A stretch of 64,000 bases of DNA from Jatrophihabitans sp. (GCA_050999655.1 JBPCPA010000282.1:1942-65941), one strand, 5' to 3'. Numbered from the stretch's first letter, positions 41,177 through 61,822 are shown. The notes: generated by a model not told the origin, from the letters alone. Made by a program: numbers and translations.

Positions 41177-41301
41177 ATACCCAGGCTAGCCCGGTATCTG
41201 GTTATCCGCACATCCGTACGGACTTGCATATCGGCGCGAATCGGCGTACACCAGAACGTGAACATCCGCAAAGCCGTACGGATGTCGAGGAAGGCATAGC
41301 G

Positions 41302-42639
41302 ATGACAATTTTTGGTGGGGCGTGGCACGGCCTGGATGAGGCGTTCTTCATGTTCTGGGAGACGCTGTGGGCGTTGGTGTTGGGCTTTGGCCTGTCCGGA
41401 GCGGTGCAGGCATTCGTGTCACGCGGGGAGATGCGTAAGGCTCTCGGTAACCACCGGCCGGCGACGCTGGGTAAGGCCAGCTTCTTCGGAGTGATCAGCT
41501 CCTCGTGCTCCTACGCGTCCTCGGCGCTGGCCAAGTCACTGTTCGCGCGAGGGGCGGACTTCACCGCCTCGATGGTGTTCATGATCGCTTCGACCAACCT
41601 GGTCGTAGAGCTCGGGATCGTGCCGTGGTTGCTGATTGGTTGGCAGTTCGCGTTGGCCGAGTTCGTCGGCGGCGCGATCATGATCGTCCTGCTCGGCCTG
41701 GTCCTGCCGCGCCTGATCCCCGAAGCCTGGATTAGCGAGGCCCGCGACCGGCTCAACGCGAACGAGGCCGCGACCGGCAGCGAAGCGGCGACGGACCCGC
41801 ACGCCGGGCACGGGCAGATTCAGGACGACGGCGAGCCGCATGAGGCCGAACCGCTGCGCCAGCGGCTACGGTCACGCCGTGGCTGGGGCGATGCATCGGG
41901 CTACACGATCAGTGACCTCACCATGCTGCGCAAGGAACTGGTGATCGGCTTCGTGGTCGCCGGTTACCTGGCCGCTCTCGTACCGACCGGGTTCTGGCGT
42001 TCGCTGTTCCTTACCGGGCACGGCTTCTGGTCCTCCCTGGAGAACGTCATCCTCGGCCCGTTCCTGGCCATTATCAGCTTCGTCTGCTCGGTCGGCAACG
42101 TCCCCCTCGCCGCAGCCCTGTGGCAGGGCGGGATCAGCTTCGGCGGTGTCGTGTCCTTCGTCTTCGCCGACCTGATCACGCTGCCGCTGCTCTCGATCTA
42201 CCGCAAATACTTCGGCACGCAGATCACGCTGCGGATCCTCGTCATCTTCTGGGCCACCATGAGCAGCGCCGGCCTCGCCGTCGAATACCTCTTCAAACTC
42301 GCCCGAATCCCCGAGCCATCCCGGCCGACAATGATCATCCGCACCGGCTTCCAGTGGAACTACACCACCATCCTCAACCTGCTCGCCCTCGCCGTATTCG
42401 CTGTCATCTACTGGCTCTACCGCCACCGGGACACGACGGACAGCCGGTACGCGAAGGACCCCGTCTGCGGGATGCAGGTCGAAACCGCGGACGCCCCCGC
42501 CAGCCGCCAAACGCACGACGGGCCGGTGTACTTTTGCTCCGATCACTGCGCTCACCGCTATGACAGCGACCCCGCACGCCGCCCAGCCAGCGCGCAGCCA
42601 AGCCCAGATGACGGCAACTTTCGGCAAGGAGGCCTCTGA
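41302..42639 (+). CDS. DUF318-type permease with C-terminal YHS/TRASH metal-binding domain
   Basis: SSSCSYAS, ASTNLVVELG and FVCSVGNVPLAA motifs. C-terminal DPVCGM...YFCSDHC. Confidence 0.88.
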   Translation: MTIFGGAWHGLDEAFFMFWETLWALVLGFGLSGAVQAFVSRGEMRKALGNHRPATLGKASFFGVISSSCSYASSALAKSLFARGADFTASMVFMIASTNLVVELGIVPWLLIGWQFALAEFVGGAIMIVLLGLVLPRLIPEAWISEARDRLNANEAATGSEAATDPHAGHGQIQDDGEPHEAEPLRQRLRSRRGWGDASGYTISDLTMLRKELVIGFVVAGYLAALVPTGFWRSLFLTGHGFWSSLENVILGPFLAIISFVCSVGNVPLAAALWQGGISFGGVVSFVFADLITLPLLSIYRKYFGTQITLRILVIFWATMSSAGLAVEYLFKLARIPEPSRPTMIIRTGFQWNYTTILNLLALAVFAVIYWLYRHRDTTDSRYAKDPVCGMQVETADAPASRQTHDGPVYFCSDHCAHRYDSDPARRPASAQPSPDDGNFRQGGL

Positions 42640-43040
42640 TGAGCATCACCGACCACGACCACCCGATCGACCCCGAGCGGGTCGCGCACGCCCGCTCCCG
42701 GCTGCCCTCCGCCGAGGACGCCGCCCGCCTCACCAGCCTGCTCTCCCTCATGGCTGACCCGGTACGACTACGCCTAATTTATGCTCTCGACGTTGCGGAA
42801 GAACTCTGCGTCGGAGACCTAGCGCTCGCCCTCGACGTCAGCGAAGACTCCGTCTCCTACGCCCTACGCCTGCTCCGCACCGCCGGGCTCATCGTTACCC
42901 GCAGAGCCGGCCGAATCATGTTCAACCGACTCGCCGACGACTTCCCAGCACCACTACGCGACCACTGCCTCCGACAACTTATCGCCCTCACTCACACCGG
43001 AGACGACAGCGATGGGGACTCGACAGCACTGACCTCATGA
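42639..43040 (+). CDS. ArsR/SmtB family metalloregulator
   Basis: LMADPVRLRLIYAL..EELCVGDLA..L.VSE..VSYALRLLR.AGL, plus a C-terminal HC site. Confidence 0.9.
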   Translation: MSITDHDHPIDPERVAHARSRLPSAEDAARLTSLLSLMADPVRLRLIYALDVAEELCVGDLALALDVSEDSVSYALRLLRTAGLIVTRRAGRIMFNRLADDFPAPLRDHCLRQLIALTHTGDDSDGDSTALTS

Positions 43041-43055
43041 TCAAGCCCTCACTAG

Positions 43056-43469
43056 CTAGGCCGGGGCAAGCAGCTCGCTGACGAGCACCTGGATGCGCTG
43101 CTTAATGTCGTCGCGGACTTCGCGTACGACGTCGATATCTTGGCCGGCGGGGTCGGTCAGGTCCCAGTCCTCGTAGCGTTTGCCGGGGAAGTAGGGGCAG
43201 GTGTCCCCGCAGCCCATCGTGATGACGACATCGGCGCGGGAGACAGAGTCGGTGGTGAGGATCTTGGGTGTTTCGGCGCTGATGTCGATGCCGACCTCGC
43301 GCATCGCCTCGACGGCAATGGAGTTGACTTGGTTGGCGGGTTCGGATCCGGCGGACCAGATCTCGATGCGGTCACCGGCCAGCTGTTTGAGCCAGCCAGT
43401 TGCCATTTGCGAGCGGCCGGCGTTGTGGACGCACACGAACAGCACAGTGGGTTTGTAACCAGTTGTCAT
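43056..43469 (-). CDS. arsC: arsenate reductase (LMW-PTP family)
   Basis: VLFVCVHNAGRSQMA, ITMGCGDTCP and DWDLTDP motifs. ATG at 43469. Confidence 0.9.
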   Translation of the reverse strand: MTTGYKPTVLFVCVHNAGRSQMATGWLKQLAGDRIEIWSAGSEPANQVNSIAVEAMREVGIDISAETPKILTTDSVSRADVVITMGCGDTCPYFPGKRYEDWDLTDPAGQDIDVVREVRDDIKQRIQVLVSELLAPA

Positions 43470-43485
43470 GGCAGTGCCTTTCAGG

Positions 43486-43545
43486 TTAGGGCCGGGCGAT
43501 GGCGTCGGCAGCGATAGCAGGTGTGTCCGGGTAGAGGCCGCGGCG
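43486..43545 (-). pseudogene. 3'-terminal remnant of an upstream ars-operon gene (possibly aquaglyceroporin)
   Basis: RGLYPDTPAIAADAIARP* directly upstream of arsC resembles the C-terminus of actinobacterial ars-associated MIP proteins. The upstream part is non-homologous. Confidence 0.35.
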
Positions 43546-43832
43546 TTGGCTCTGGCCAAAGACGCCGTAACGGGGGTACAGGGCCAATACATTTGCACGT
43601 TGAACAGCAATGATTTGATCCCCGAGGTCGCCGAGGCTGAATGGTTCACCACGTCTATCGTCCGGACTGTCCTCGACACTGAACACGGTGGAATCCTTGG
43701 GGTGTCGTTCTAGCGACCCACCAACGGTCGGTCGCAAGATATCCCTGGGTTGAGGCAAGCAACGCAGGAGTAACAGGACACCTGTCGTCGGCAAGTGCAA
43801 GTCAATGGCGTGCACTCATCCATTCCTGCCGT

Positions 43833-44245: not shown

Positions 44246-45289
44246 GTGACCACGACTCTTTCGGCTCGTCATCAGGACGCGGCAATGCTTCCGTTTTTGA
44301 GCGGAGTAACTCAAGCAAAGCGGACGATCGTGGTCGCGGGTCGTAGCTTCGAGGTCACCCCGGTGTTTGACACCTACTGGCGATTCGCAGCAGCTCGCCA
44401 GCACATTTATGAGGCTCGACAGGCTGGGCGTCCCGGGCCGTGGACCAACGATCCGATTCTTCGGCTGCACCGGTTCACCAACTGCTTCCGCGCGGCCGAT
44501 CGCGTCAGTCAGTTCCTCATTGGTGAGGTCGCCTATCGTGGATCACAGGAGCCGGAAGAAGTCGTCTTCCGGACGCTGTTATTTAAGCTCTTTAACAAGG
44601 TGTCTACCTGGCGTCTGCTCCAACAGCACATCGGAGAGCTGACTTGGCACGGAGCAGACCTCGTGGCCTACGATGCCGTGCTTACGCAGGCATTCGCCGA
44701 GGGCCGCCGACTTTACTCGGCTGCCTACGTAATTCCTCCGCCGCAGCTTGGTGGGGAGCGGAAGCACTCTAATCACCTGCATCTTTTGCGCCTCCTGATG
44801 GAAGACCGGGTACACGAGCGATTGGCTGCAGCGCCAAGCATGGCGCACGCATTCGAGGTGCTGAGGAGCTACCCGGCAATCGGGGACTTTCTGGCCTACC
44901 AGTTCCTCATCGACATCAACTACAGCGGGGCATTGGCCTTCGATGAAGGCGAGTTCGTCGTACCCGGCCCCGGCGCGCGCGACGGCATCCGCAAGTGCTT
45001 CGGTGCCGCCGCGTCCGGATTTGAGGCTGAGGTAATCCGCTACATGGCCGACAGCCAAGAAGAACACTTCGATCGGCTGGGCTTAGAGTTCCACGGCCTT
45101 CGGGGCCGTCGCTTGCAGCTTATAGACTGTCAGAATCTCTTCTGCGAGGTAGACAAGTACGCCCGTGTCGCCCACCCCGATGTCCAGGGCATCTCCGGTC
45201 GGACCCGGATCAAGCAGAAGTATGCACCCGACGCAGCACCGTTGACGGCTTGGTTTCCGCCAAAATGGAATCTAAACGCCGCGTCCTGA
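44246..45289 (+). CDS. 5-hmdU DNA kinase helical-domain / aGPT-pyrophosphorylase family protein (standalone)
   Basis: YWRFAAARQHIY..R..G...PWTNDPIL...RFTNCFRAADRVSQ, RTLLFKLFNK, IGDFLAYQ...D.NYS, GPGARDG and DCQNLFCEVDKY.RV motifs. Confidence 0.82.
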   Translation: MTTTLSARHQDAAMLPFLSGVTQAKRTIVVAGRSFEVTPVFDTYWRFAAARQHIYEARQAGRPGPWTNDPILRLHRFTNCFRAADRVSQFLIGEVAYRGSQEPEEVVFRTLLFKLFNKVSTWRLLQQHIGELTWHGADLVAYDAVLTQAFAEGRRLYSAAYVIPPPQLGGERKHSNHLHLLRLLMEDRVHERLAAAPSMAHAFEVLRSYPAIGDFLAYQFLIDINYSGALAFDEGEFVVPGPGARDGIRKCFGAAASGFEAEVIRYMADSQEEHFDRLGLEFHGLRGRRLQLIDCQNLFCEVDKYARVAHPDVQGISGRTRIKQKYAPDAAPLTAWFPPKWNLNAAS

Positions 45290-45297
45290 CCGACTGA

Positions 45298-46251
45298 TCA
45301 GGTGGCGTTCATCGCCTCGTACTGCTCGACGGTGTACGGGATGAGCGTCCGGTTATGCAGATCCGCGACTAGGACACCGCTGCGATGTTCTATGAGGAAT
45401 CTGAAGGCGTTGTACCCGGCCAAGATGGCGTGCTGCCAGTCGGGAATGCTGCGACTCTTTACCTCGAGATGAGCCGTTGCGCGCCTGCACGACTTCAGGA
45501 GGTCTCGTGGTACGCGAGTAGTGGTCTTGAAGAACGAGTAGTCGGCTGCCTCGGCGAACACAGACGCCGTGAGGCCTTCTTCGATCACGACTGCTCTAGC
45601 GCCGTCCTCGACCCGGTCGAGCCGTTCAACGCTCTTCCGCTTGCACTTCGGGTCGAGGATTGCCCTAATCACCGGCGACCAGCCGAGGACTGCCATGTGG
45701 CCCAGGTGCAGCGCGTCGTGGTAGCGATAGAAATCATCGATGTCGCTGTTGTCATCGATTGGGTCGCCCATCCGGCGGAAGGTCGTCTCACCGTTTAGTA
45801 CCGTCAGGGTCACGACGCCAATTTCTCGACCGTCGCGGATCTCGGTGTGTTCGTTGAAGCGCACGACAAGCTGACGCGGCAACTGCTCATGTGGTTCCAT
45901 ATCTTCGTCGAAGAGATCGTGCGGACGCGGTGGCTCATTGGACAGGAATTCACCGGCAGCTTTGTCCAGGTTTGCTTGGGCAATTTCGCCGAGGGTCAGT
46001 CCGACTCGCGACGCCAGTGCGGCCATGTACCACAACGCATCGCCTAATTCCTCCTGCACGGACTCGCCGAATGCCCTGTAGCCTGTTGAGTCACGGTTGC
46101 GCTTCTTCCACTCTGCTGCGAGTTCGCCGACCTCACCTACAATGCCGAACAGTGGAAGCACCAAATCGCTAGCCGACCCATCTTTTGGCAGGATATCGGT
46201 AGCGAGTGCCCGTCGTTGGTATTCGTCCAGAGACAGTTCAGTAGTACTCAT
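45298..46251 (-). CDS. MazG-like nucleotide pyrophosphohydrolase with C-terminal MazG_C domain
   Basis: GEVGE and EELGDALWY metal motifs. C-terminus GDPIDDN...YRYHDALHLGHMAVLGWSPVIRA...KRKS...VEDGARAVVIEE. Confidence 0.88.
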   Translation of the reverse strand: MSTTELSLDEYQRRALATDILPKDGSASDLVLPLFGIVGEVGELAAEWKKRNRDSTGYRAFGESVQEELGDALWYMAALASRVGLTLGEIAQANLDKAAGEFLSNEPPRPHDLFDEDMEPHEQLPRQLVVRFNEHTEIRDGREIGVVTLTVLNGETTFRRMGDPIDDNSDIDDFYRYHDALHLGHMAVLGWSPVIRAILDPKCKRKSVERLDRVEDGARAVVIEEGLTASVFAEAADYSFFKTTTRVPRDLLKSCRRATAHLEVKSRSIPDWQHAILAGYNAFRFLIEHRSGVLVADLHNRTLIPYTVEQYEAMNAT

Positions 46252-46949
46252 ATCAAGATCCTCGCTGCTTGTGCGCCGAAGTTGATCAAATATTCTACCG
46301 GGAGAAGCCCATAGCCGCCTGCCCCCCAGAATTCACCCCATGAGTTACGGATCAGAAACACCCGGCCATGCGTGAGATCGGTCCACGCCCCTGTGACGAC
46401 CACAGCGTGATAGCCCTCGGCGGGGGCCGTGATGGGTGGAACTGTTACGTAGCCGTCCAGATCGGGCGTGCGAAAGTTGGCGCTTATCTCGATCACTAGC
46501 ACCACTGGATGGCCGTCCGCGAGTTCGTGCTCAACTGCGTCTTCCACGCCATCGTGCGCTATGACGACAGGCGAAAGGTTGGCGCGGGTCCAAGGCGGAA
46601 TACCGGCGGATGCAGGCGGTGGCTCAGACTCGAACCCGAGGCTGTCGTTGTAGGGCCACAGATCAGCGTCGCAATGGCCGGTGTGCGGCAGCGCGTGGCC
46701 TGCTGAGCCTAGGGTCGTACCGTCGTGTCCGGCCAAGCCCCACTCACGAAGGCGCCACCAGATGGGCTCGATCGCGGCCTCGAATCCAGAGCGTTCGGCC
46801 TCATGAGCAGCAGCCAGAGCACAGGCAACGCACGTCGGTCGCGGGCCTTGATCCATGACGTCGCTTGAGATCTGCGACGTCAGGTCGACCGCAGGGCGCC
46901 CAGCGGCGGACTCACGGAGTTTCTTAAGCCGCTCAGCAGCGGTGGTCAC
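46248..46949 (-). CDS. papain-like (C1) cysteine peptidase
   Basis: DQGPRPTCVACA (Gln/Cys), YHAVVVTG (His) and IRNSWGEFWGAGGYG (Asn). No signal peptide. Confidence 0.9.
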   Translation of the reverse strand: MTTAAERLKKLRESAAGRPAVDLTSQISSDVMDQGPRPTCVACALAAAHEAERSGFEAAIEPIWWRLREWGLAGHDGTTLGSAGHALPHTGHCDADLWPYNDSLGFESEPPPASAGIPPWTRANLSPVVIAHDGVEDAVEHELADGHPVVLVIEISANFRTPDLDGYVTVPPITAPAEGYHAVVVTGAWTDLTHGRVFLIRNSWGEFWGAGGYGLLPVEYLINFGAQAARILI

Positions 46950-48229
46950 GCGACATCGACCTCGAACTCGGCGTCGTCATCAGGGTCGCCTGGCAACCGC
47001 CGGTCTAGGTCACTCTCTAGCTGTCGCCGCCGGAACGCAGTATTCGGAGTTGGCTGGACCGCCAACTGCAGCTCGTAGGTGAAAAGCGGTTCGTCCCGTG
47101 GGTCGTAGGCGTGAGCGTAAAAGAGTTGGAGTTGCCACCCACCGGGCCTGACGGTACGCACGATGACCGTACGAACGCCGTTGCCGCCGATCGGTGGGCC
47201 ATCGGCGATCTCCATGGCTGGGCCACCTTGGCGGGCACGGATTCTGCGTCGACGTTGCCGTTGGATCTTGGTCTGCGGCTCGTCGCCAGCGGTAAACGAA
47301 TCCTCGACCACGGTGGCCGGCGCGGCATCCTCGTCCGCGTCAGAATCGTCAGGGGCGGAATCGAGGGTTCGAATTTGTCCCAGGGCGGCGAGTGTGTAGT
47401 CCGTCGCCGAGAATTGGTCCCGCCGTCGAAGGCTACCGTCGATGACGGGGACTTCCGGCGGTGCAATTGGACGGGACCGAGGCCTCCATGATCCGCCATT
47501 GCGTTGGGCCAGCTCATCCTCCGTCTGCCAGCGCCAGCCAGCGAGACGTTGCTCGACCAGGTCCACCATGACCTCGTCGTGCTCCTCGACGACGAGGCTG
47601 ACGAGCTCATCGTTGCTCGTCGCGTCCCACATGTCAGCTAGCCCGTTTTCCGGGCGGTGGTTGCCGGACGCCCGTCGGAGGGCGGACATCCGACCCAGGT
47701 CCAAAATTCGTTGAAATGCAGCCTGGTTGATGAACCGAGCGGCGAGCAGTCGTCGGGCGGTGGCCTCGTAGCTCACACCCAGATCGCGGCTCAATCGGTA
47801 GACGTGCTCCGGTTTGATCTGACCTCGTCGCAATCCGTAGGCTGCGACGGCGTGATTCAACAACGTCGGAGGCATCAGGAAGTAGCCAGCGAATAACTGC
47901 GCCTCGCGCTCCAACTCGCTGGACGGGTGCCCGAGAACCTCAGCTTCGCCGTCCATCCGTAGGTGGTCCGCGTGTAGAACCCAGTGACCAATCTCGTGCG
48001 CTGCTGTATATCGCTGGATCGCAGAGCTCCGCTGTGACGTAATCAGGACCCCGCCATTCCCGTCAGGAACGACTGCGCCGAGCAGGTTGTCCAAGTTAGT
48101 GATATGCAGAGCTAGGCCGAGTCGGTCGATTGCCGCGAAGGGATCGATTACATATCTTTGATCGATGCCGAGGAGTTCGAGGGTCTCATCTGCGGCAACT
48201 AAGGCGTCGGCGCGCCCCGAGACGGTCAC
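46946..48229 (-). CDS. ImmA/IrrE family Zn metallopeptidase with C-terminal chagasin (I42)-like domain
   Basis: QRYTAAHEIGH, EREAQLFAGYFLMP and LGVSYEATARRL. The C-terminal beta-domain pattern is described under findings. Confidence 0.85.
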   Translation of the reverse strand: MTVSGRADALVAADETLELLGIDQRYVIDPFAAIDRLGLALHITNLDNLLGAVVPDGNGGVLITSQRSSAIQRYTAAHEIGHWVLHADHLRMDGEAEVLGHPSSELEREAQLFAGYFLMPPTLLNHAVAAYGLRRGQIKPEHVYRLSRDLGVSYEATARRLLAARFINQAAFQRILDLGRMSALRRASGNHRPENGLADMWDATSNDELVSLVVEEHDEVMVDLVEQRLAGWRWQTEDELAQRNGGSWRPRSRPIAPPEVPVIDGSLRRRDQFSATDYTLAALGQIRTLDSAPDDSDADEDAAPATVVEDSFTAGDEPQTKIQRQRRRRIRARQGGPAMEIADGPPIGGNGVRTVIVRTVRPGGWQLQLFYAHAYDPRDEPLFTYELQLAVQPTPNTAFRRRQLESDLDRRLPGDPDDDAEFEVDVA

Positions 48230-48624
48230 GTTGGCTCCTCCTCCGGCGGTCGTGGGCGTGAGCGAGTGTTTGTCCCGTCTTCCGTGCGTTGTTGTGCGGC
48301 CAGAAACTCCGCGAAGCGGAGTACCTGTTCCTTATCGGCATTAGTGAGGTTCGCTGTAGCGCGGTGTAGGGCACTACCGGCAGCTGCCTCGGGCTCTTCC
48401 TCGCCTAGCAACCAAGCCACATCTCGTTGATAGAGACGAGCCAGTCGACGGAGTTCCAGGCCAGTAATTTTACGTGTGCCCTTCTCCACTGCGGCTAAGG
48501 TCGGACGACTCAAGCCGAGCGCGTCGGCGACATCGGCTTGAGTCAGGCCCATAGCAAGACGCGCATCCCGAAGCCGAGCCCCGACGACTCTGTGTTCGTT
48601 CGGTTGATCGCTCAACGGACTCAC
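48226..48624 (-). CDS. XRE family HTH regulator
   Basis: GARLRDARLAMGLTQADVADALGLSRPTLAAVEKGTRKITGLEL. The GTG start overlaps the AcpS TGA. Confidence 0.92.
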   Translation of the reverse strand: MSPLSDQPNEHRVVGARLRDARLAMGLTQADVADALGLSRPTLAAVEKGTRKITGLELRRLARLYQRDVAWLLGEEEPEAAAGSALHRATANLTNADKEQVLRFAEFLAAQQRTEDGTNTRSRPRPPEEEPT

Positions 48625-48992
48625 GCGGCGTCGCCGATCGCTACGACGAATGCCAGAGCGAGGCCCATTTCGTGGCTCAGACTTAGCGACCATTCAGTGA
48701 GGCGAAGGTTTGATGCATACTTCGCGGCATCCCCACTGAGACGTAGGCACGGCGTCTCGCCTTGTGCGCTTACGACCTCGATATCCAAATGCTCGATGTC
48801 AGGGAATCCCGCTCCGAGCGCCTTCATCACCGCCTCCTTTGCTCCCCATCGAGCGGCCAACCGCTCGGCGTTCCCAGCGCAGTACGCCTGCTCTGCTTCG
48901 GTCCATGTCTGATCCAAAAAGGTTCGACCACCCGACTCGGCCAGCCGGCGGAGACGATCGATGTCGACAAGGTCAACTCCCGTTCGCAGCAT
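48621..48992 (-). CDS. acpS: holo-ACP synthase (AcpS-type 4'-phosphopantetheinyl transferase)
   Basis: GVDLVDIDR, LAARWGAKEAVMKALG and SLSLSHE motifs. Confidence 0.92.
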   Translation of the reverse strand: MLRTGVDLVDIDRLRRLAESGGRTFLDQTWTEAEQAYCAGNAERLAARWGAKEAVMKALGAGFPDIEHLDIEVVSAQGETPCLRLSGDAAKYASNLRLTEWSLSLSHEMGLALAFVVAIGDAA

Positions 48993-48996
48993 CTAG

Positions 48997-49857
48997 TCAG
49001 CTCACCGAATCGTCTTGCTGGATCTGACTGCGGACCGTCGTGATGAGCTTCTTAAGAACGGTGTGACTGAACGTGCCGATCTCGGCGTTCGCGACGGTCC
49101 CGTGAATCATCAATTCTCCTGGTTCGTAGCCGGTCTGTTGAGACATAAAGTGGAGCAAACGAGTCAAGCCGATGAGGTTGCCATAGGCCTTGTGAATTAG
49201 GTGCCAGTGCCGGTAGACGGCCACTAAACTCAGACGATTGTGGACCACGCTGATATCGACATGGACGAGGCAGGGAAAAGCAATCTGACGTTCGTCATTG
49301 GCTTTGTATATTTGCAGGCCGGCGGATCCGACTGCGGATTCGATCTCGGCTACGCCTTCGAGAGCGAAGTCGGCGGCATTTGTAGCGGTATGTGCTTGAT
49401 TACGGTGTGAACGGAGCTGTTTAACGCGGCTCTTCAGTTGGTTGTACCCGTCACTTTCTTTACCCGGCCAGGACACGAGTCGTCCGAAGTAGGTTCCGTG
49501 GGCGTTGCCGTTAAACCCGCAGAGGTCCGGCAACATGTCTCGGTAGTTGGCGTACAGATCTTCGGCGGCAGCGTCCAGCAGATGGAGCTGCCCCGGCCTG
49601 AGATCGGGGTGATAATCAAGATCGGGTGGGGAGTAGAGATTCGCAGGGAATAGCGTATTAGCAACGGTATCGACTGAGTGATCGCCGCGCGGGATGAGCA
49701 ACGCATCGTTCGCCGCCACGATCTCGGGCAGGGGTGCGGACGGTTCGGTGATCGACAGCACAGTGTGGAGCAGTCGACCGTCGCGCCTAGCTTCTGCAGC
49801 TTCCAACACGCTCAGCCAGGCTACTTCGATGTTAGTGAATGAAGGAAACGCAATCAT
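48997..49857 (-). CDS. divergent thymidylate synthase / dUMP-hydroxymethylase homolog
   Basis: TYFGRL...NQL, FPCL (catalytic Cys), LSLVAVYR....KAYGN and G.L..H..A. ATG at 49857 overlaps the upstream TGA. Confidence 0.75.
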   Translation of the reverse strand: MIAFPSFTNIEVAWLSVLEAAEARRDGRLLHTVLSITEPSAPLPEIVAANDALLIPRGDHSVDTVANTLFPANLYSPPDLDYHPDLRPGQLHLLDAAAEDLYANYRDMLPDLCGFNGNAHGTYFGRLVSWPGKESDGYNQLKSRVKQLRSHRNQAHTATNAADFALEGVAEIESAVGSAGLQIYKANDERQIAFPCLVHVDISVVHNRLSLVAVYRHWHLIHKAYGNLIGLTRLLHFMSQQTGYEPGELMIHGTVANAEIGTFSHTVLKKLITTVRSQIQQDDSVS

Positions 49858-50315
49858 GCGACCACCACCGCTCGGCGCAGTCGAGCGATGACTCCGGCGA
49901 CTGACCGGACACTCACAAAATCCTTCGGCTCGCAGTTGCCGCGCAGTCGCGTCCAGTCGCGTGGTCCGAGTACCCGCGCCACAATTCTGCATACGAAGAC
50001 CGCGAGCATGCTGTCGATAGCCAGGCTGCCGTCGCTAGCAAGTTCGCCAACCTTTAGCTCCGCGATGGTGCGTTGCGTTGAGGCAGTGAGGATGGTGAGA
50101 ACCTGCTGTTCGATCTCGGTCAACGACCCGGTCTGAAGTACAGAACGGTCGGCCACGAGGACTGCTGGCGCCGTCGCCAAGTCACCAGCCGCGTGCGGCG
50201 AGCCCTCATCGGCTTGATGCCGGGGTATCGGCTGTACGGTCCGGTGACGGCCAGAGGCCGGTCCAAACAATGCTGCACGCCGGGCCGATCGCGCGGCGGC
50301 ATCCATCTCTGTCAT
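49854..50315 (-). CDS. acyl carrier protein-like protein with N-terminal extension
   Basis: C-terminal ~90 aa: helix I (IEQQVLTIL), IDSM (Ppant Ser site), helix II and F.SVRSVAGVI (terminal helix). Two genes from acpS. Confidence 0.65.
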   Translation of the reverse strand: MTEMDAAARSARRAALFGPASGRHRTVQPIPRHQADEGSPHAAGDLATAPAVLVADRSVLQTGSLTEIEQQVLTILTASTQRTIAELKVGELASDGSLAIDSMLAVFVCRIVARVLGPRDWTRLRGNCEPKDFVSVRSVAGVIARLRRAVVVA

Positions 50316-50324
50316 TGGACTAGT

Positions 50325-50360
50325 GTCAGGATAACTGACGTCAATGTCAAGCAGCCTGAC
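50325..50360. promoter_or_regulatory. tandem operators upstream of the ACP-TS operon
   Basis: GTCAG-GATAA-CTGAC (50325-39) and GTCAA-GCAGC-CTGAC (50346-60), 21 bp apart and 10 nt from the ATG. Confidence 0.6.
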
Positions 50361-50423: not shown

Positions 50424-50675
50424 TCAGTCGTATGGCGGATTTGCTAGGCCGTTGACCAGCATGGCTGCATCGATGTCAAGCGCCGCTGCGAGCTTGAGGA
50501 TGTTGTGCAGTGTCAGGTTTCGTCGGCCCCGTTCGACCTGCCCCACGAACGTCCAGTGCAGGTGCGCCAGGTCGGCCAGGGCTTCCTGAGTCAACCCAAG
50601 TTCATTACGCCGTACCCGGACCCGTCGCCCAAACTCTGCGGTCGCGGCGGACAACGGCGTGGGGGTGCTCGGCAT
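50424..50675 (-). CDS. small XRE family HTH protein
   Basis: FGRRVRVRRNELGLTQEALADLAHLHWTFVGQVERGRRNLTLHNILKLAAAL. Confidence 0.88.
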   Translation of the reverse strand: MPSTPTPLSAATAEFGRRVRVRRNELGLTQEALADLAHLHWTFVGQVERGRRNLTLHNILKLAAALDIDAAMLVNGLANPPYD

Positions 50676-54319: not shown

Positions 54320-56413
54320 TCAGGCCGTTGGCGCGGCGGCGCTGTCCAGAGAGCTAGCAATCTTGGTGATGTCGAAACAGACTTGCAGGAGCTCCTTCGA
54401 CAGGGCCAGGAAGACCTGCGTGTGTGCCTGCCAGAGTGCGCCTTGGCAGGCGTCGTAAAGCACGAATGCTGCTCGCCAATGATCCAGCTCGGTGGTTGTG
54501 CTTGCTCCGGAGCCGAGGTCGGCGTCGGCCAGCCGTCGCAGAATCACTTCATCGCTGGGCGGTGCCCAGGTGGACAGCAAGTGTTTTGCCGTCTGGAGCT
54601 TCGAGACGGAGTTACGGAGCTGGTCCTGAATGCTGATCCACGGTGCCATAAGGTGTTCCACACCTCGTCGAAGCTGGCGCCGTTGAACCGTGGCATAGAA
54701 CTTTTGGAATAGGTCGCTGTCGAGAAATTGGAACGCACTGAAGCAAGCTTGCCATATCCTTTGGCAAGCCTCGTCGACATCAAGCCCGTAGTCCTCGACA
54801 TCTCGCATGGCTCGGGCGTCAGGCTCATAGTTCACAAGGCTGATGTCGATCCTGAACATTGCCACGGAGCGCATCGTGAAGTAGCTGGCGATGTCGGCTG
54901 CGCCCCAGCCGTAGGCTTTCAGGTCCCATGCCTCGAAGAGCGTCTGCTGGGGGTTGTCGTAGCAAAAATAGAGTACCGCCGCACATGCTGCGGTCATCTC
55001 CAGATGCCGGCAGTACGTGCGAACGAGATGAGCTGTGAAGGGGTCAAGATAGATCCGATCGTCTTGGCGGCGCACCAGACCCATGCTCAGCAGTGGACGA
55101 ATGGCGGCCGCGTACTCGATTTGTGCCGGAGCCGGATTGTCATGGAAGTAACCGGGGTTCCTCGCAAAGAGTGTCATCGCGCACCGCTCGGTCACGTTGG
55201 CATGCCCGCAAAACGCGAGGAACACCAGCAGATCGATCGACGAGGACCCCCGCACTGCTACGAGCATCTGCAGGTAGGTCGCGGCGATCGACGCCTGGCC
55301 GGGCGGTGTTGAGGCTCGCAGGACCGTTCGGATATCTTTACGCACCACCTGACAGAACTCCGCGATCCCGATCTCAGGGTGCTCCGATAGGAATGCGCAG
55401 GCATTGGCAAGGGCGCGCGGTCGTCGGCCCATCGTGGTAGCCAAATCAGCGGCGCTGTCGCCGAGCGCCGGGTTCAGGAGACGGACCAGTGTGATCGCTT
55501 GATCTGCAGTGAGTTCACGAACGGTCAAGACCGGCGCCACCACATGCGGTAGAACGCCGCGAGTGGTGACAACGATCAGACAGGCCGGTTCGTCCGGCAG
55601 CCATCCGCGCATGCTGACGCCTGTTGGCCAGCCATCGATTACAACGACTTCCGGGCCCCGACCTGAGCTGAGCAGCTGTGTGAAGCGATCTTGAATCGCT
55701 GGCACGCTGAGCGTCGAGACATCTTTGTCGTGCTGCTGAAATAGCTGATACGTGGAAAGGAGTAACGCTTGTTCTGTATCAGCTTGCAGCCATTCCACCG
55801 ACCGATTGCGGAAGTAGTCGGCCACGAAGTGGGACTTGCCGACGCCAGCCTCGCCCTCGATAAAGATCAGTCCGGGTTGAAGGATCGTATTTCGACCCAG
55901 AGATGCATAAACTAGTTCATCCATTTTCTGGGTCAGGTCGTAGCGAGCGACAACGGCATCGACGCTGGGCGTAGGCGCATTGCGGTACGTGCGCCGCGCG
56001 ATCACCTGGAGTTCTCGCGCGACGAGTTCGAGAATTCTCGGCTCGTACTCGACTCCGCTTTGAAAAGTGCGAGGAGAGACCTTGAACTTGTCCATCGCTG
56101 CTTTGCGTCGTTCTCCGATGCCTCGAAGGTCGCCTGAAGCGAGACCGAACTCCTCGTGAGCCGCCTCCCGGTAGGTCTTAACGTCGATGGCTCTGACTGC
56201 GGAGCGCATCATCAGCTCAATCGCAGTTCGGATGTCTCTTGCTTGCGGGTACGCCCGAGGAGCGTTTTCGACGAGCCACGGATACGGCGGTTCAAACCCG
56301 CCGTCGCTGAGACCATGCACACCAGGCTCACGAAACGCAAGAAGCTCAAGCACGAGGGGGTCGGCATTCTCGTACGGCTTCGGCACCTTGAATGTCGGCG
56401 ATCCCGTAGTCAC
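54320..56413 (-). CDS. STAND/NB-ARC-like P-loop NTPase with uncharacterised N- and C-terminal domains
   Basis: GEAGVGKS (Walker A), VVVIDG (Walker B), IVVTTR (sensor 1), then an L...EA..L / G.P.AL helical region. Confidence 0.75.
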   Translation of the reverse strand: MTTGSPTFKVPKPYENADPLVLELLAFREPGVHGLSDGGFEPPYPWLVENAPRAYPQARDIRTAIELMMRSAVRAIDVKTYREAAHEEFGLASGDLRGIGERRKAAMDKFKVSPRTFQSGVEYEPRILELVARELQVIARRTYRNAPTPSVDAVVARYDLTQKMDELVYASLGRNTILQPGLIFIEGEAGVGKSHFVADYFRNRSVEWLQADTEQALLLSTYQLFQQHDKDVSTLSVPAIQDRFTQLLSSGRGPEVVVIDGWPTGVSMRGWLPDEPACLIVVTTRGVLPHVVAPVLTVRELTADQAITLVRLLNPALGDSAADLATTMGRRPRALANACAFLSEHPEIGIAEFCQVVRKDIRTVLRASTPPGQASIAATYLQMLVAVRGSSSIDLLVFLAFCGHANVTERCAMTLFARNPGYFHDNPAPAQIEYAAAIRPLLSMGLVRRQDDRIYLDPFTAHLVRTYCRHLEMTAACAAVLYFCYDNPQQTLFEAWDLKAYGWGAADIASYFTMRSVAMFRIDISLVNYEPDARAMRDVEDYGLDVDEACQRIWQACFSAFQFLDSDLFQKFYATVQRRQLRRGVEHLMAPWISIQDQLRNSVSKLQTAKHLLSTWAPPSDEVILRRLADADLGSGASTTTELDHWRAAFVLYDACQGALWQAHTQVFLALSKELLQVCFDITKIASSLDSAAAPTA

Positions 56414-59709: not shown

Positions 59710-60803
59710 CCGAAGCTCACTCTGACCCACACCAGCAAGCCAGGCGGCAAGCAGACCCTGACCGCAGCCGGACCAACCATCCTCATATCCAGCCAGACAG
59801 TTGGCTCAACCCGACCGATCCCAGCCGCTCCGATCGCTGCTCCAGTCGTGTCGACTCACCGACCCCTGTAACCCCCGAATCATCGGCCATCCGGTCGCAA
59901 TTCGCGCCCGAATGTCTCACGCGCAGCGGGAGACATCTACTCGCCGAGGGCCGCCCGCAGCAGGCAGCGAACAAATCAGCCACGAAGCATCGTGGTCCAG
60001 GCCGCAACAGCCAACGCCGCCAGGCCGAACTACTCCAACCCAAACTCACTACCCGCGACCACGCAGTCCTTACCAGCCTGCAAGACCACCACTACCTGAC
60101 TACAACTCAACTACAACGACTTCATTTTGACGATCACCAAACCACGTCGGCGGCCGGTCGAATCTGCCGCCGGGCGCTGACCCGGCTGGCGGAGCTGGGC
60201 GTCATCGAGCACCTAGAACGGCGGGTCGGCGGTGTCCGGGCCGGCTCCGCCTCCTACGTCTGGCGACTGGGCCGGATCGGGGAAGCGTCGCTGCGACTCA
60301 ACCAACCGCAGCGGCCACGCGGCCGCCATAAAGAACCATCGCTGCACCACTTAGAGCACTGCCTGGCGATCGCAGACAGCCACCTCGCTCTGCTGGACCT
60401 GATGCGGCGGAACCTTGTCGAGTCGGCAACTGTCGTCACCGAACCGACTTGCTGGCGGCGCTACCTGACGCCGAGCGGGGCGATGGCCACCCTGAAGCCG
60501 GACCTGTACGCCATGACGACCAGCGGTGAGTTCGAGGACCACTGGTTCATCGAGGTCGACCGGGGCACCGAGAGTTTGCCGACGCTGCTTACTAAGTGTG
60601 CCCAGTACGAGGACTACCGCCGGACCGGCGACGCCCAACACGACAACGGCGTCTTCCCATTGGTGCTGTGGCTGATGCCCTCCGTACAGCACGCCGAATG
60701 GCTCGGACAGGCCATCGCCAGGGTCAAGAACCTGGACAGCGGCCTGTACCGGATCGGCACCCTGGCCGAACTTGAGCGGATCCTCAGTGAGGTTCAACCA
60801 TGA
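59706..60803 (+). CDS. replication-relaxation (Replic_Relax) family protein
   Basis: wHTH (LTTRDHAVL...LTTTQL...LTRL..LG), H.LAIAD, LKPD and WFIEVDRGTESL...K...Y. Confidence 0.88.
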   Translation: MTEAHSDPHQQARRQADPDRSRTNHPHIQPDSWLNPTDPSRSDRCSSRVDSPTPVTPESSAIRSQFAPECLTRSGRHLLAEGRPQQAANKSATKHRGPGRNSQRRQAELLQPKLTTRDHAVLTSLQDHHYLTTTQLQRLHFDDHQTTSAAGRICRRALTRLAELGVIEHLERRVGGVRAGSASYVWRLGRIGEASLRLNQPQRPRGRHKEPSLHHLEHCLAIADSHLALLDLMRRNLVESATVVTEPTCWRRYLTPSGAMATLKPDLYAMTTSGEFEDHWFIEVDRGTESLPTLLTKCAQYEDYRRTGDAQHDNGVFPLVLWLMPSVQHAEWLGQAIARVKNLDSGLYRIGTLAELERILSEVQP

Positions 60804-61822
60804 CCGCGCTCGATCCAATGATCCGGAACCGAATCGTAGTCGGTGACGCGCTCGAGCAGCTGCGCCAGCTGCCAGACGCTTCCGTCGACATGGTGCTGAC
60901 CAGCCCGCCGTACTTCCGGCTGCGCGACTACGACGTCGCCGGCCAACTCGGCCTGGAATCGCACGTCGAGGAATGGGTCAACAACCTGTTCCTTATCGCG
61001 GCCGAACTACGGCGGGTGCTGCTGCCGACCGGCACCCTGTGGCTGAACCTCGGCGATAGCTACTCCATCCACGCCGATCAAGGCTCGGCCAAGAAGGGCC
61101 TGCTGCTCGGACCAGAACGCCTGACGCTGGCCCTGATCCAAGACGGCTGGCTACTGCGCAACAAGATCGTCTGGCAGAAGGCCAACCCGATGCCGAGCCC
61201 GGTACGTGACCGACTAGCGGCGACTTGGGAGGCGGTCTACGTCTTCACTCGCAACCCGCGCTACTTCTTCGACCTCGACAGCGTCCGCATACCGCACACC
61301 AGCTCGCACAAACCGATCAGACAACGGACTCGTACAGCTCAGCCCTGGCGCAGCAGTAACAGCAACGACACCGACGGTCTGGCACGGCTCAAAGCTCGGG
61401 GACTCGCAGGGCACCCGCTCGGTAAGAACCCCGGCGATGTCTGGCGATTGGCTTCCAGTGGCTACCGCAGTGCCCACCACGCGACTTTCCCAACGTCCTT
61501 GGCCAGCCGGGCACTTCAAGCCGGTGCGCCGGAAGCTCGCTGCAGCCGCTGCCGATCCCCGTGGCAACGCAGCGTGCTCCGCGCGGCCGATGGCAGTGCC
61601 AGCAGGACGGCCCTCGGCCCGACCTGTGGCTGCGACGCTGACCGCGAACCAGCCCTCGTCCTCGACCCATTCTTCGGCGCCGGCACAACCGCGGTGGCCG
61701 CCGAACAGCTCGGCCGCGACTGGCTCGGTATCGAACTGAATCCGGAGTTCGCGCGCCAAGCCGAACAGCGCATCTTGGCCAGCCGTCCTCCCCGTGCCGG
61801 TCCGAAGAATACGGCGGCCTGA
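60800..61822 (+). CDS. beta-class N4-C/N6-A DNA methyltransferase
   Basis: TSPPY precedes HHATFP and DPFFGAGTT. Carries a CxxC...CxC insertion. Confidence 0.92.
   Translation: MTALDPMIRNRIVVGDALEQLRQLPDASVDMVLTSPPYFRLRDYDVAGQLGLESHVEEWVNNLFLIAAELRRVLLPTGTLWLNLGDSYSIHADQGSAKKGLLLGPERLTLALIQDGWLLRNKIVWQKANPMPSPVRDRLAATWEAVYVFTRNPRYFFDLDSVRIPHTSSHKPIRQRTRTAQPWRSSNSNDTDGLARLKARGLAGHPLGKNPGDVWRLASSGYRSAHHATFPTSLASRALQAGAPEARCSRCRSPWQRSVLRAADGSASRTALGPTCGCDADREPALVLDPFFGAGTTAVAAEQLGRDWLGIELNPEFARQAEQRILASRPPRAGPKNTAA

Follow-up and report, generated by a model that had tools for sequence, protein, structure and literature searches.

A divergent carrier protein and its predicted phosphopantetheinyl transferase in a mobile, putatively nucleotide-modifying cassette of Actinomycetota

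Carrier proteins are commonly met as shuttles of acyl, aminoacyl and peptidyl groups in lipid and natural-product synthesis. Here we describe a 64,000-nucleotide stretch of DNA assigned to Jatrophihabitans sp. (GCA_050999655.1, JBPCPA010000282.1:1942-65941; in the following, the window), whose source is a sediment metagenome (DNA runs) and in which a carrier protein appears as a constant core component of a short mobile cassette of putative nucleotide-modifying enzymes, under a predicted damage-responsive switch and with no loading enzyme present. An earlier note, made from the sequence alone, had proposed a dedicated acyl carrier protein (ACP) and an AcpS-type transferase inside a nucleotide-metabolism operon with no polyketide synthase, non-ribosomal peptide synthetase or fatty-acid synthase genes nearby; this arrangement was borne out, and such genes are absent from the vicinity of the pair as well as from 89 related loci. 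If the reading developed below is correct, phosphopantetheine chemistry acts in the modification of nucleotides or DNA, probably in phage defence.

Among the described systems that resemble the cassette, DS-4 of Escherichia coli consists of a thymidylate synthase (TS), a dNMP kinase, an HMUDK_hel protein, a TIR protein and Nmad2, and protects from phage in experiments by a mechanism that is unknown (DeWeirdt et al., PMC13092281); for other systems, which contain aGPT-Pplase, MazG and MazG-C, a defence role was predicted but not validated in that study. DS-4 and the cassette have a TS-fold enzyme and HMUDK_hel in common and, in view of a Tmk-like gene in 32 of the 89 related loci, also a nucleotide kinase. 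However, DS-4 has no carrier, AcpS, C1 peptidase, MazG or CapH/CapP, whereas TIR, Nmad2 and Tmk-like genes are absent from the window, and a profile of the TS-like protein showed no significant similarity to the DS-4 thymidylate synthase, leaving HMUDK_hel as the only clear homologue. The second point of comparison is the thymidine hypermodification of phages M6, ViI, SP10 and PhiW-14 (Lee et al., PMC8989533), which likewise employs a TS-family C5 enzyme, a kinase or pyrophosphatase and an aGPT-Pplase-related protein. In this pathway a C6-Cys adduct formed by the phage aGPT-Pplase2 gives rise to an electrophilic exocyclic C5 methylene which is attacked by amine, hydroxyl or thiol nucleophiles, and the thiol of beta-mercaptoethanol has been shown experimentally to capture this methylene as a thioether (PMC8989533). 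The phages use free amino acids or polyamines, a P-loop 5-hydroxymethyl-deoxyuridine (5-hmdU) DNA kinase and tailoring enzymes of the pyridoxal-phosphate and radical-SAM (S-adenosylmethionine) types; in contrast, the cassette has neither a P-loop HMUDK domain nor tailoring enzymes, a protein-bound thiol is proposed for it, and it resides in bacterial mobile elements under a repressor/protease switch. Finally, the CapH/CapP pair of cyclic-oligonucleotide-based antiphage signalling systems (CBASS) and others, as well as ImmR/ImmA, resembles the cassette in its adjacent XRE and M78 genes, the HEIGH motif and an operator-like repeat at the promoter. Unlike CBASS, the cassette lacks a CD-NTase or other known effector, and its CapP-like protease bears a chagasin-like tail, a combination of which we met no description.

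The cassette is thus not DS-4, a phage hypermodification cluster or CBASS, and has one or two parts in common with each. Nucleotide-modifying cassettes of the defence type are known, while the carrier component is unprecedented: in the literature covered, which leaves aside one relevant comparative-genomics paper, neither carrier proteins nor phosphopantetheinyl transferases were found linked to conflict systems of the anti-phage or nucleotide-centric kind. Neither PP-binding nor ACPS is mentioned in the part of the supplementary tables of PMC13092281 that was available, and these domains are likewise unmentioned in a preprint on Streptomyces defence systems. We found no description of a carrier and AcpS combined in a nucleotide-modifying cassette. 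The genes in question, of which the first seven form an operon on the minus strand, are the following (aa, amino acids; pI, isoelectric point):

49854..50315, minus strand: carrier gene, 153 aa, first gene of the operon, with 49 homologues conserved over the full length
48997..49857, minus strand: thymidylate-synthase-fold enzyme, 286 aa, with Cys196 in FPCLVH (49261-49278), YR (49204-49215) and YGN (49177-49185)
48621..48992, minus strand: AcpS-type 4'-phosphopantetheinyl transferase, 123 aa, pI 4.8, assigned by profile matches and alignment
48226..48624, minus strand: CapH-like XRE helix-turn-helix (HTH) repressor, 132 aa from GTG 48624, with a GTGA overlap with the AcpS stop codon
46946..48229, minus strand: CapP/ImmA-like M78 zinc metallopeptidase with a C-terminal chagasin-like tail, 427 aa, HEIGH at 47984-47998 intact
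46248..46949, minus strand: papain-family C1 cysteine peptidase, cytoplasmic, 233 aa, with QGPRPTC (46830-46850), YHAV (46401-46412) and NSWG (46335-46346)
45298..46251, minus strand: MazG nucleotide pyrophosphohydrolase fused to MazG_C, 317 aa, last gene of the operon
44246..45289, plus strand: HMUDK_hel protein, 347 aa, convergent with the operon, with a Cys-Glu pair in LFCEVDKY (45137-45160)

An ACP layout had been claimed for the C-terminal part of the first gene product, and several lines of evidence support it. The relevant elements of the gene are (pLDDT, predicted local distance difference test):

49857..50138, minus strand: carrier (ACP-fold) domain, aa ~60-153, pLDDT >90, four helices, with carrier proteins as top fold matches
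50010..50012, minus strand: codon AGC of Ser102, predicted phosphopantetheine attachment site, an invariant column that opens helix II of the modelled structure
50220..50279, minus strand: conserved N-terminal motif RRAALFGPASGRHRTVQPIPR, carrier aa 13-32, found in alignments A1 and A3 and in the locus survey

An AlphaFold model computed with the homologue alignment as input has a pLDDT above 90 over residues ~50-150 and contains helices at residues 65-80, 102-120, 130-133 and 136-152, with Ser102 as the first residue of the second of these (helix II). When this helical bundle was compared with known structures using Foldseek, about 23 of the 25 best PDB matches were carrier proteins (E 0.4-3), including AcpP, DltC, the complex-I ACP NDUFAB1, PigG and PltL; a fold search against viral proteins gave no matches. 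The serine, whose conservation is expected of a true carrier, is retained throughout: D101-S102-M103 is invariant across the 25 close homologues of alignment A1, and Ser102 is the sole invariant column of alignment A3, which combines relatives from an exhaustive profile search with the carrier equivalents of other loci (37 sequences, down to ~20% identity). An aligned serine occurs in 86 of the 88 surveyed carrier open reading frames (ORFs), these being the ones that entered the aligned set. The Pfam PP-binding model (PF00550) is matched by four of the 37 wider relatives (best 4.4e-6), and in the most distant cassettes, which are of a Streptomyces type, the equivalent protein is a canonical ACP of 80 aa ('ELPVDSILIVEILTRIEERYG') that matches mycobacterial AcpM at 1.7e-4. 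The window carrier and its 24 close homologues gave zero Pfam matches, and hhalign of A1 against single ACPs (E. coli AcpP and the Streptomyces-type ACP) was not significant, the DS motifs being in register in the non-significant alignment with the latter. The assignment of the window protein thus rests on fold, family conservation and context, since no sequence profile recognises it.

The 49 full-length homologues share 59-83% identity with the window protein, are mostly exactly 153 aa long with conservation across the whole length, and derive from soil and sediment metagenomes and one Streptosporangiaceae metagenome-assembled genome; when 1.8 billion representative proteins were searched exhaustively with a profile, only 35 relatives of the carrier were returned. 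A public gene call of 89 aa (P0041) begins inside the carrier gene and is too short, as the homologues support the form of 153 aa. Among the homologues the N-terminal motif reads RRAALFGxASGRHRxVQPIPR and is followed by a variable linker of low pLDDT. A core [LF]F[GF]P recurs in window-like carriers (RRAALFGP in the window, VFDLYGMP in Microbacteriaceae-type loci) and may be a docking or cleavage site. A mis-called start as the source of the long N-terminus was considered and rejected, since the motif is conserved at the protein level, with in-frame indels. The modelled fold and the conserved serine thus make it well supported that the 153-aa protein is a divergent, non-acidic carrier which consists of an N-terminal extension with the LFGP motif and an ACP-fold domain with Ser102 as predicted attachment site. 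With the ordinary ACPs of type II fatty-acid and polyketide synthesis and their AcpS (2jbz) the pair shares the helical bundle, the serine at the start of helix II and the ~120-aa AcpS with its motifs. It differs in that the window carrier is basic, has an N-terminal extension of ~60 aa, escapes PP-binding profiles and is not accompanied by a synthase, ligase or transacylase, and in that its AcpS is acidic. The aminoacyl carriers (DltC with DltA; the carrier of the glycine:[carrier protein] ligase, 4h2u) are similarly stand-alone proteins outside PKS, NRPS and FAS systems and are among the best fold matches; however, such systems always have a dedicated adenylating ligase, and none was found in the 89 loci.

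An intact AcpS two genes downstream had also been noted, and this gene product is indeed recognised by Pfam ACPS (PF01648; 1e-13, 51.7 bits, cut-off 25) and NCBIfam TIGR00556 (68 bits, cut-off 45), aligns over its full length with the Streptomyces coelicolor AcpS 2jbz (1.6e-11) and retains the motifs GVD (GVDLV), AKEA.xKALG (AKEAVMKALG) and SLSH (SLSHE), while it scores under the cut-offs of every housekeeping 'equivalog' model of NCBIfam. Ordinary AcpS enzymes bind ACP via its acidic helix II. An acidic domain would be expected for the PP-binding family, whereas that of the window carrier is not acidic and has a net charge of +3 and a pI of 9.5. A comparison of 86 carrier ORFs from the 89 loci revealed that carriers with an AcpS of their own have a median domain net charge of +1 and a pI of 8.2, whereas those without are acidic like ordinary ACPs (median -10, pI 4.3); the dedicated AcpS proteins, conversely, are acidic with a median charge of -6. 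A non-acidic carrier of the window type would thus need a private AcpS, as ordinary enzymes recognise the acidic helix II. This charge swap, read from the sequences, is the best indirect evidence that carrier and AcpS are substrate and enzyme, beside the joint occurrence of the two genes, and it is well supported that the AcpS is the dedicated, charge-matched predicted transferase of the carrier. The two proteins could be a naturally orthogonal pair and are of interest for orthogonal labelling.

The distribution of the genes was determined from relatives of the TS-like protein, which lie in 139 stretches of a one-genome-per-species collection, almost all from Actinomycetota. Eighty of these were retained and supplemented with nine from other assemblies to give 89 loci (L001-L089), which are phylogenetically non-independent; since the survey is based on six-frame ORFs and iteratively built home-made profiles, individual calls (starts, a few fragments) are approximate. 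The TS-like gene is present in 89/89 loci, the carrier in 88/89 (the single miss is a locus cut at a contig end), the HTH repressor in 88/89, the M78 protease in 87/89, HMUDK_hel in 83/89 and MazG in 78/89, while AcpS and the C1 peptidase are each present in 56/89. The latter two are gained and lost together: both occur in 54 loci, neither in 31, and only one of them in 2+2. The window-type gene order is carrier, TS, AcpS, HTH, M78, C1 and MazG, with HMUDK_hel on either side. In the Streptomyces type, MazG lies on the opposite strand, followed by carrier, HTH, M78 and TS, with HMUDK_hel opposite and without AcpS and C1. A rare third type (L070, L083, L088) has the Streptomyces order with AcpS upstream and C1 before TS, and its TS-like enzyme is closer to the type without C1. 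The possibility that the co-variation is an effect of a single clade is countered by this second architecture with both genes, although the pattern would still be accounted for if AcpS and C1 had been lost jointly, and once, in the Streptomyces-type branch.

Unbiased clustering of the ORFs of the 89 loci revealed no adenylation enzyme, acyl-CoA or acyl-ACP ligase, ketosynthase or acyltransferase and no further family shared between the architectures. The one extra recurrent gene encodes a Tmk-like P-loop kinase, present in 32 of the 89 loci, all window-like, and replacing MazG in seven of the 11 loci without the latter; the remaining recurrent clusters consist of shadow ORFs or of mobile-element genes from the flanks. 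The kinase gene, found for example in L016-L024, L027-L030 and L034-L041, separates HMUDK_hel from the carrier gene or follows MazG/C1, and is fused to MazG in L047; none was found in the window. It is well supported by this distribution that the carrier is a universal core part of the cassette, while AcpS, C1 and the chagasin-like tail are accessory and are present or absent as one module. Taken jointly, we hold the statements on identity and context of carrier, AcpS and cassette to be very probably correct.

The TS-like gene starts at ATG 49857 with an ATGA overlap with the carrier stop codon. The AlphaFold model of its product (pLDDT 82) matches L. casei TS in Foldseek at 1e-9 with a probability of 1.0 and furthermore matches the dCMP hydroxylase AfhB and the CMP hydroxymethylase MilA; the invariant FPCL.H, YR and GN align with the active-site motifs of TS, at the positions of the catalytic Cys (PCH motif), the phosphate-binding Arg and the base-reading Asn. 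The MazG protein is recognised by Pfam MazG_C (3e-61) and MazG (3.3e-5), with an N-terminal domain similar to dCTP pyrophosphatase 1 and a MazG_C domain that is listed as 'predicted nucleotide kinase' in PMC13092281. The HMUDK_hel protein matches Pfam HMUDK_hel at 5.3e-113, a family related to phage proteins for DNA base hypermodification, and shares 26% identity (6e-29) with the 'putative DNA base hypermodification protein' of E. coli DS-4, 29% with its closest annotated phage relative, the 'aGPT-Pplase clade 1' protein of phage SN1, and 39% with a protein of Brevibacterium phage LuckyBarnes. A total of 505 phage records contain homologues, among them those of M6-like and ViI-like phages, which are thymidine hypermodifiers, and the Cys-Glu pair in LFCEvDKY is invariant across the HMUDK_hel family of the cassettes. 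A PDB sequence search with this protein returned zero relatives; only the helical domain is present, a reading of the sequence revealing no Walker A motif and Pfam no kinase domain.

A further carrier domain of possible relevance was found at rank 28 of the fold matches, that of 10-formyltetrahydrofolate dehydrogenase (2cq8). In the latter enzyme the phosphopantetheine arm moves a one-carbon unit, a non-acyl group, between folate-dependent active sites. The match is of interest because the neighbouring enzyme of the carrier has the thymidylate-synthase fold; however, 2cq8 is a domain of a large eukaryotic enzyme, and the cassette provides no evidence of one-carbon transfer.

The genes for these proteins appear to form a translationally coupled operon. 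On the minus strand the order is carrier, TS-like, AcpS, CapH-like repressor, CapP-like protease with chagasin-like tail, C1 and MazG-MazG_C, and five of the six junctions are 4-nt ATGA or GTGA overlaps, the sixth being a 4-nt gap; HMUDK_hel is convergent beyond MazG-MazG_C. Two elements precede the carrier gene:

50345..50350, minus strand: putative -35 hexamer TTGACA of the operon promoter, with CTTGACA at a constant distance from the carrier start in many window-like loci
50325..50339, minus strand: inverted repeat GTCAG-TTATC-CTGAC, candidate operator, overlapping the -10 region, with its end ~10 nt upstream of the ATG

In distant loci the same arrangement reads TTGACA, N5-6, TGTCRG-N4-5-CYGACA before the start codon, and the repeat was found in L001-L003, L005, L010-L014, L022, L025, L028, L037, L039, L049 and L051. 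It is conserved (50322-50351 on the minus strand in the window) though the proteins of these loci share just 40-50% identity. The hexamer and repeat are thus probably promoter and operator of a transcript that would be near-leaderless, given that the repeat overlaps the -10 region and ends so close to the ATG, and the CapH-like repressor is the probable ligand of this operator. The repressor matches Pfam HTH_3 (2.6e-14) and PADLOC capH (3.3e-11), its start at GTG 48624 being placed by the junction and by homologue lengths of 131-135 aa, and the adjacent peptidase matches Pfam Peptidase_M78 (7.9e-14) and PADLOC capP (3.6e-22). An XRE repressor and an M78 metallopeptidase thus lie side by side within a regulated operon, as is characteristic of a CapH/CapP pair, and it is strongly supported by the gene arrangement that the operon forms one transcription unit under a switch of this type.

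The M78 protein carries an additional region:

47093..47545, minus strand: chagasin-like (Inhibitor_I42) region of the M78 protein, with LAGWRW (47528-47545), IGGNGVR (47171-47191) and YAHAYDP (47099-47119)

Compared with the NPTTG / GxGG / RPW loop motifs of the chagasin family, this tail is degenerate in the window (LAGWRW / IGGNG / HAY), and it matches PF09394 with an E-value of 0.049 and 14.3 bits, under the cut-off of 27.2. M78 tails from other loci match with E-values from 2.8e-10 to 1.5e-3, the gathering score being exceeded in three cases, and the best reach 37-41 bits and display the loop motifs ENPSTGYRW, GAP/GGP and RPF. Ahead of a C1 gene, the M78 protein is ~140 aa longer (median 440 vs 298 aa), and the tail is restricted to loci in which the two genes are so arranged; loci with a tailed M78 include the window, L005, L025, L028, L037, L049, L051, L070, L083 and L088. 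Inhibitors of the I42 (chagasin) family occupy the substrate cleft of true papain-like peptidases. The C1 protein itself matches Pfam Peptidase_C1 (2.1e-6, 28.4 bits, cut-off 20.7), and its catalytic Gln, Cys, His and Asn are at least 90% conserved among 55 distinct sequences. This standard catalytic set, together with the constant presence of a chagasin-type partner domain, gives C1 the appearance of a tightly held protease and not of a biosynthetic acyltransferase, and suggests that its activity is gated by an inhibitor fused to a regulatory protease. As AcpS and C1 co-occur and the tail tracks C1, the three can be regarded as one accessory module. The locus thus offers, in addition to the carrier and a conserved operator, a papain-like peptidase whose putative chagasin-type inhibitor is fused to a CapP-like protease.

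Taking these observations together, we favour the view that the cassette is an inducible nucleotide-modifying conflict system, probably directed against phages, in which the phosphopantetheine thiol is the working group, and we would give this view a probability of roughly 0.55. That the conflict is most likely one with phages is suggested by the DS-4 relative, by the related predicted systems and by the regulators. In such a scheme, DNA damage or infection would activate the CapP-like protease, through whose action the repressor would come off the operator upstream of the carrier gene and the operon would be switched on. The enzymes would then recreate the logic of phage thymidine hypermodification, in that MazG would convert dNTPs to dNMPs, the TS-fold enzyme would activate C5 of the pyrimidine nucleotide, MazG_C (or the Tmk-like kinase in other loci) would re-phosphorylate the nucleotide and HMUDK_hel would act on the modified base. 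The thiol of the holo-carrier might attack the electrophilic C5-methylene pyrimidine as a nucleophile or provide a covalent handle for it, by which a nucleotide or DNA would become tethered; direct use of the thiol is proposed because no loading enzyme is ever encoded, and a protein-bound thiol would amount to one extra universal component. This nucleophilic step, suggested by the missing loading enzyme and by analogy, is a tentative proposal which we consider rather doubtful. C1 would be held by the chagasin-like tail until activation and would then process the carrier at its N-terminal extension, the conjugate or another target, and as an outcome the replication of the invading phage or of the infected cell would be blocked. 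It might even be speculated that the thiol holds no cargo and is a reactant in the strict sense, and that the TS-fold enzyme and/or HMUDK_hel makes a thioether to the pyrimidine C5-methylene, with a protein-nucleotide conjugate, or a DNA-protein crosslink formed on DNA (of the phage) during its replication, as immune effector and the chagasin-gated C1 processing carrier or adduct. In this specific form the idea is unlikely to hold; if true, it would place a carrier and coenzyme-A-derived chemistry in nucleic-acid immunity, for which we found no precedent. The cassette also provides a handle on the mechanism of the related systems of TS, HMUDK_hel and kinase that protect E. coli (PMC13092281).

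Several points weigh against this view. No PADLOC model matches the core enzymes, the anti-phage function being deduced from relatives and regulators, and the pair of HTH and M78 proteins also resembles the ImmR/ImmA-type regulators of mobile elements. The use of the thiol as nucleophile is argued by analogy and from the lack of an encoded loading enzyme, while a host enzyme could load the carrier. Phosphopantetheine on Ser102 is itself predicted, the fold matches of the carrier are weak (E as given above; template-modelling score normalised by target 0.52-0.64), and the window protein matches no Pfam, NCBIfam, PADLOC, PHROGs or PDB profile, A1 being used for the PDB comparison. The TS-like enzyme is very divergent, with 18.7 bits against Pfam Thymidylat_synt, under the cut-off of 24.3. 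HMUDK_hel is closest to the phage 'clade 1', whose activity is not established, unlike the characterised clade 2 transferases (PMC8989533). Finally, the existence of cassettes without C1 indicates that this peptidase is dispensable for the core reaction.

The same C1-less cassettes bear on a different use of the carrier, which was put forward in the earlier note: an acyl or aminoacyl thioester on the holo-carrier could be transferred by C1, acting as an acyltransferase, to a base, nucleotide or protein. The near-perfect co-variation of AcpS and C1, which extends to the second gene order of L070, L083 and L088, makes a functional link between C1 and the carrier module plausible, and the catalytic residues of C1 are intact. 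Delivery as such does not fare as well, as no adenylating enzyme, ligase or acyltransferase is encoded in any of the 89 loci and C1 is constantly paired with a domain that is typical of inhibitors of papain-like peptidases. Moreover, 31 loci keep the carrier, together with TS-like, MazG and HMUDK_hel proteins, without C1 or AcpS, and C1 is therefore not the core route of carrier chemistry. On balance we regard acyl delivery through C1 as unlikely.

It can likewise be argued that the cassette does not serve defence, but that a mobile element hypermodifies its own DNA as an anti-restriction measure on transfer, or that a small cluster for a nucleoside metabolite is present, the carrier tethering a group or an intermediate in either case. 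HTH and M78 pairs of the ImmR/ImmA type also govern the induction of mobile elements, with which the regulators of the cassette would be compatible. The location on conjugative or plasmid-like elements fits this explanation as well, as do the similarity of the TS-fold enzyme to MilA of mildiomycin biosynthesis and the parallel between the enzyme set and phage hypermodification, which protects from restriction (PMC8989533). However, the regulators are internal to the cassette and accompany it through very different flanks, which is typical of self-contained defence cassettes; the only relative that has been tested experimentally, DS-4, protects from phage; and no transporter, resistance or tailoring genes are conserved around the 89 loci. 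We thus consider a non-defence role improbable.

Alternatively, the carrier could be a non-catalytic subunit or a metabolic sensor, comparable to the ACPs that act with complex I and LYR proteins, Ycf2-FtsHi or SpoT, with its arm or a host acyl chain gating the TS-like enzyme, MazG or HMUDK_hel. ACPs that are subunits of large assemblies (8xqw_J, 8iao_U, 7qsd_T) are among the best structural matches, no loading enzyme is encoded, and the carrier, being the first product of the operon, is probably the most abundant one. A purely structural role would leave the co-evolving charges of carrier and AcpS and the sole invariant serine unexplained, neither of which is decisive, and we judge this alternative to have little probability. 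Should the carrier prove to be a structural subunit only, a new and widespread actinobacterial gene cassette would still have been described. The further suggestion that the protein mimics host ACP to trap or detect ACP-binding phage proteins, to which the ACP fold alone would lend itself, is very improbable, since a mimic should resemble host ACP, while the window carrier (pI 9.5) differs from the strongly acidic ordinary ACPs in charge and sequence, is unseen by ACP profiles and has its own acidic, charge-matched AcpS.

With regard to the surroundings, it is well supported that the cassette travels on mobile elements in Actinomycetota. The flanks vary by locus, with ParAB in L005 and an integrase in L003, and in the window the G+C content is below that of the rest from ~36 kb to the window end. 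Genes upstream of the operon include:

50424-50675, minus strand: XRE protein, 83 aa, matching restriction-modification 'control protein' models (PADLOC 1.6e-17), outside the conserved cassette
54320-56413, minus strand: AAA_16/STAND-like ATPase, 697 aa
57475-59709: TrwB/mad8-like coupling-type ATPase, 744 aa
59706-60803: Replic_Relax relaxase
60800-61822: N6/N4 DNA methyltransferase

The closest long relative of the window, L001 (6210-8784), appears as a decaying copy in which a DDE transposase of an insertion sequence (IS) splits the M78 gene and HMUDK_hel is fragmented. In L058-L064, L017, L019, L075, L076 and L084, which are mostly of the Streptomyces type, the cassette is flanked by three large conserved genes of ~750, 360 and 680 aa that, as read from their sequences without a family search, look like Tn7-like genes (TnsB/TnsC/TnsD), and in eleven other loci a relaxase-like gene of ~1040 aa is nearby. 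On the other side of the cassette, the window encodes two further proteins which probably serve resistance to metals or arsenic and would be cargo of the same island (41224-43679):

41224-42639: ArsP-type permease with a YHS domain
43056-43679: low-molecular-weight phosphatase/ArsC-like gene

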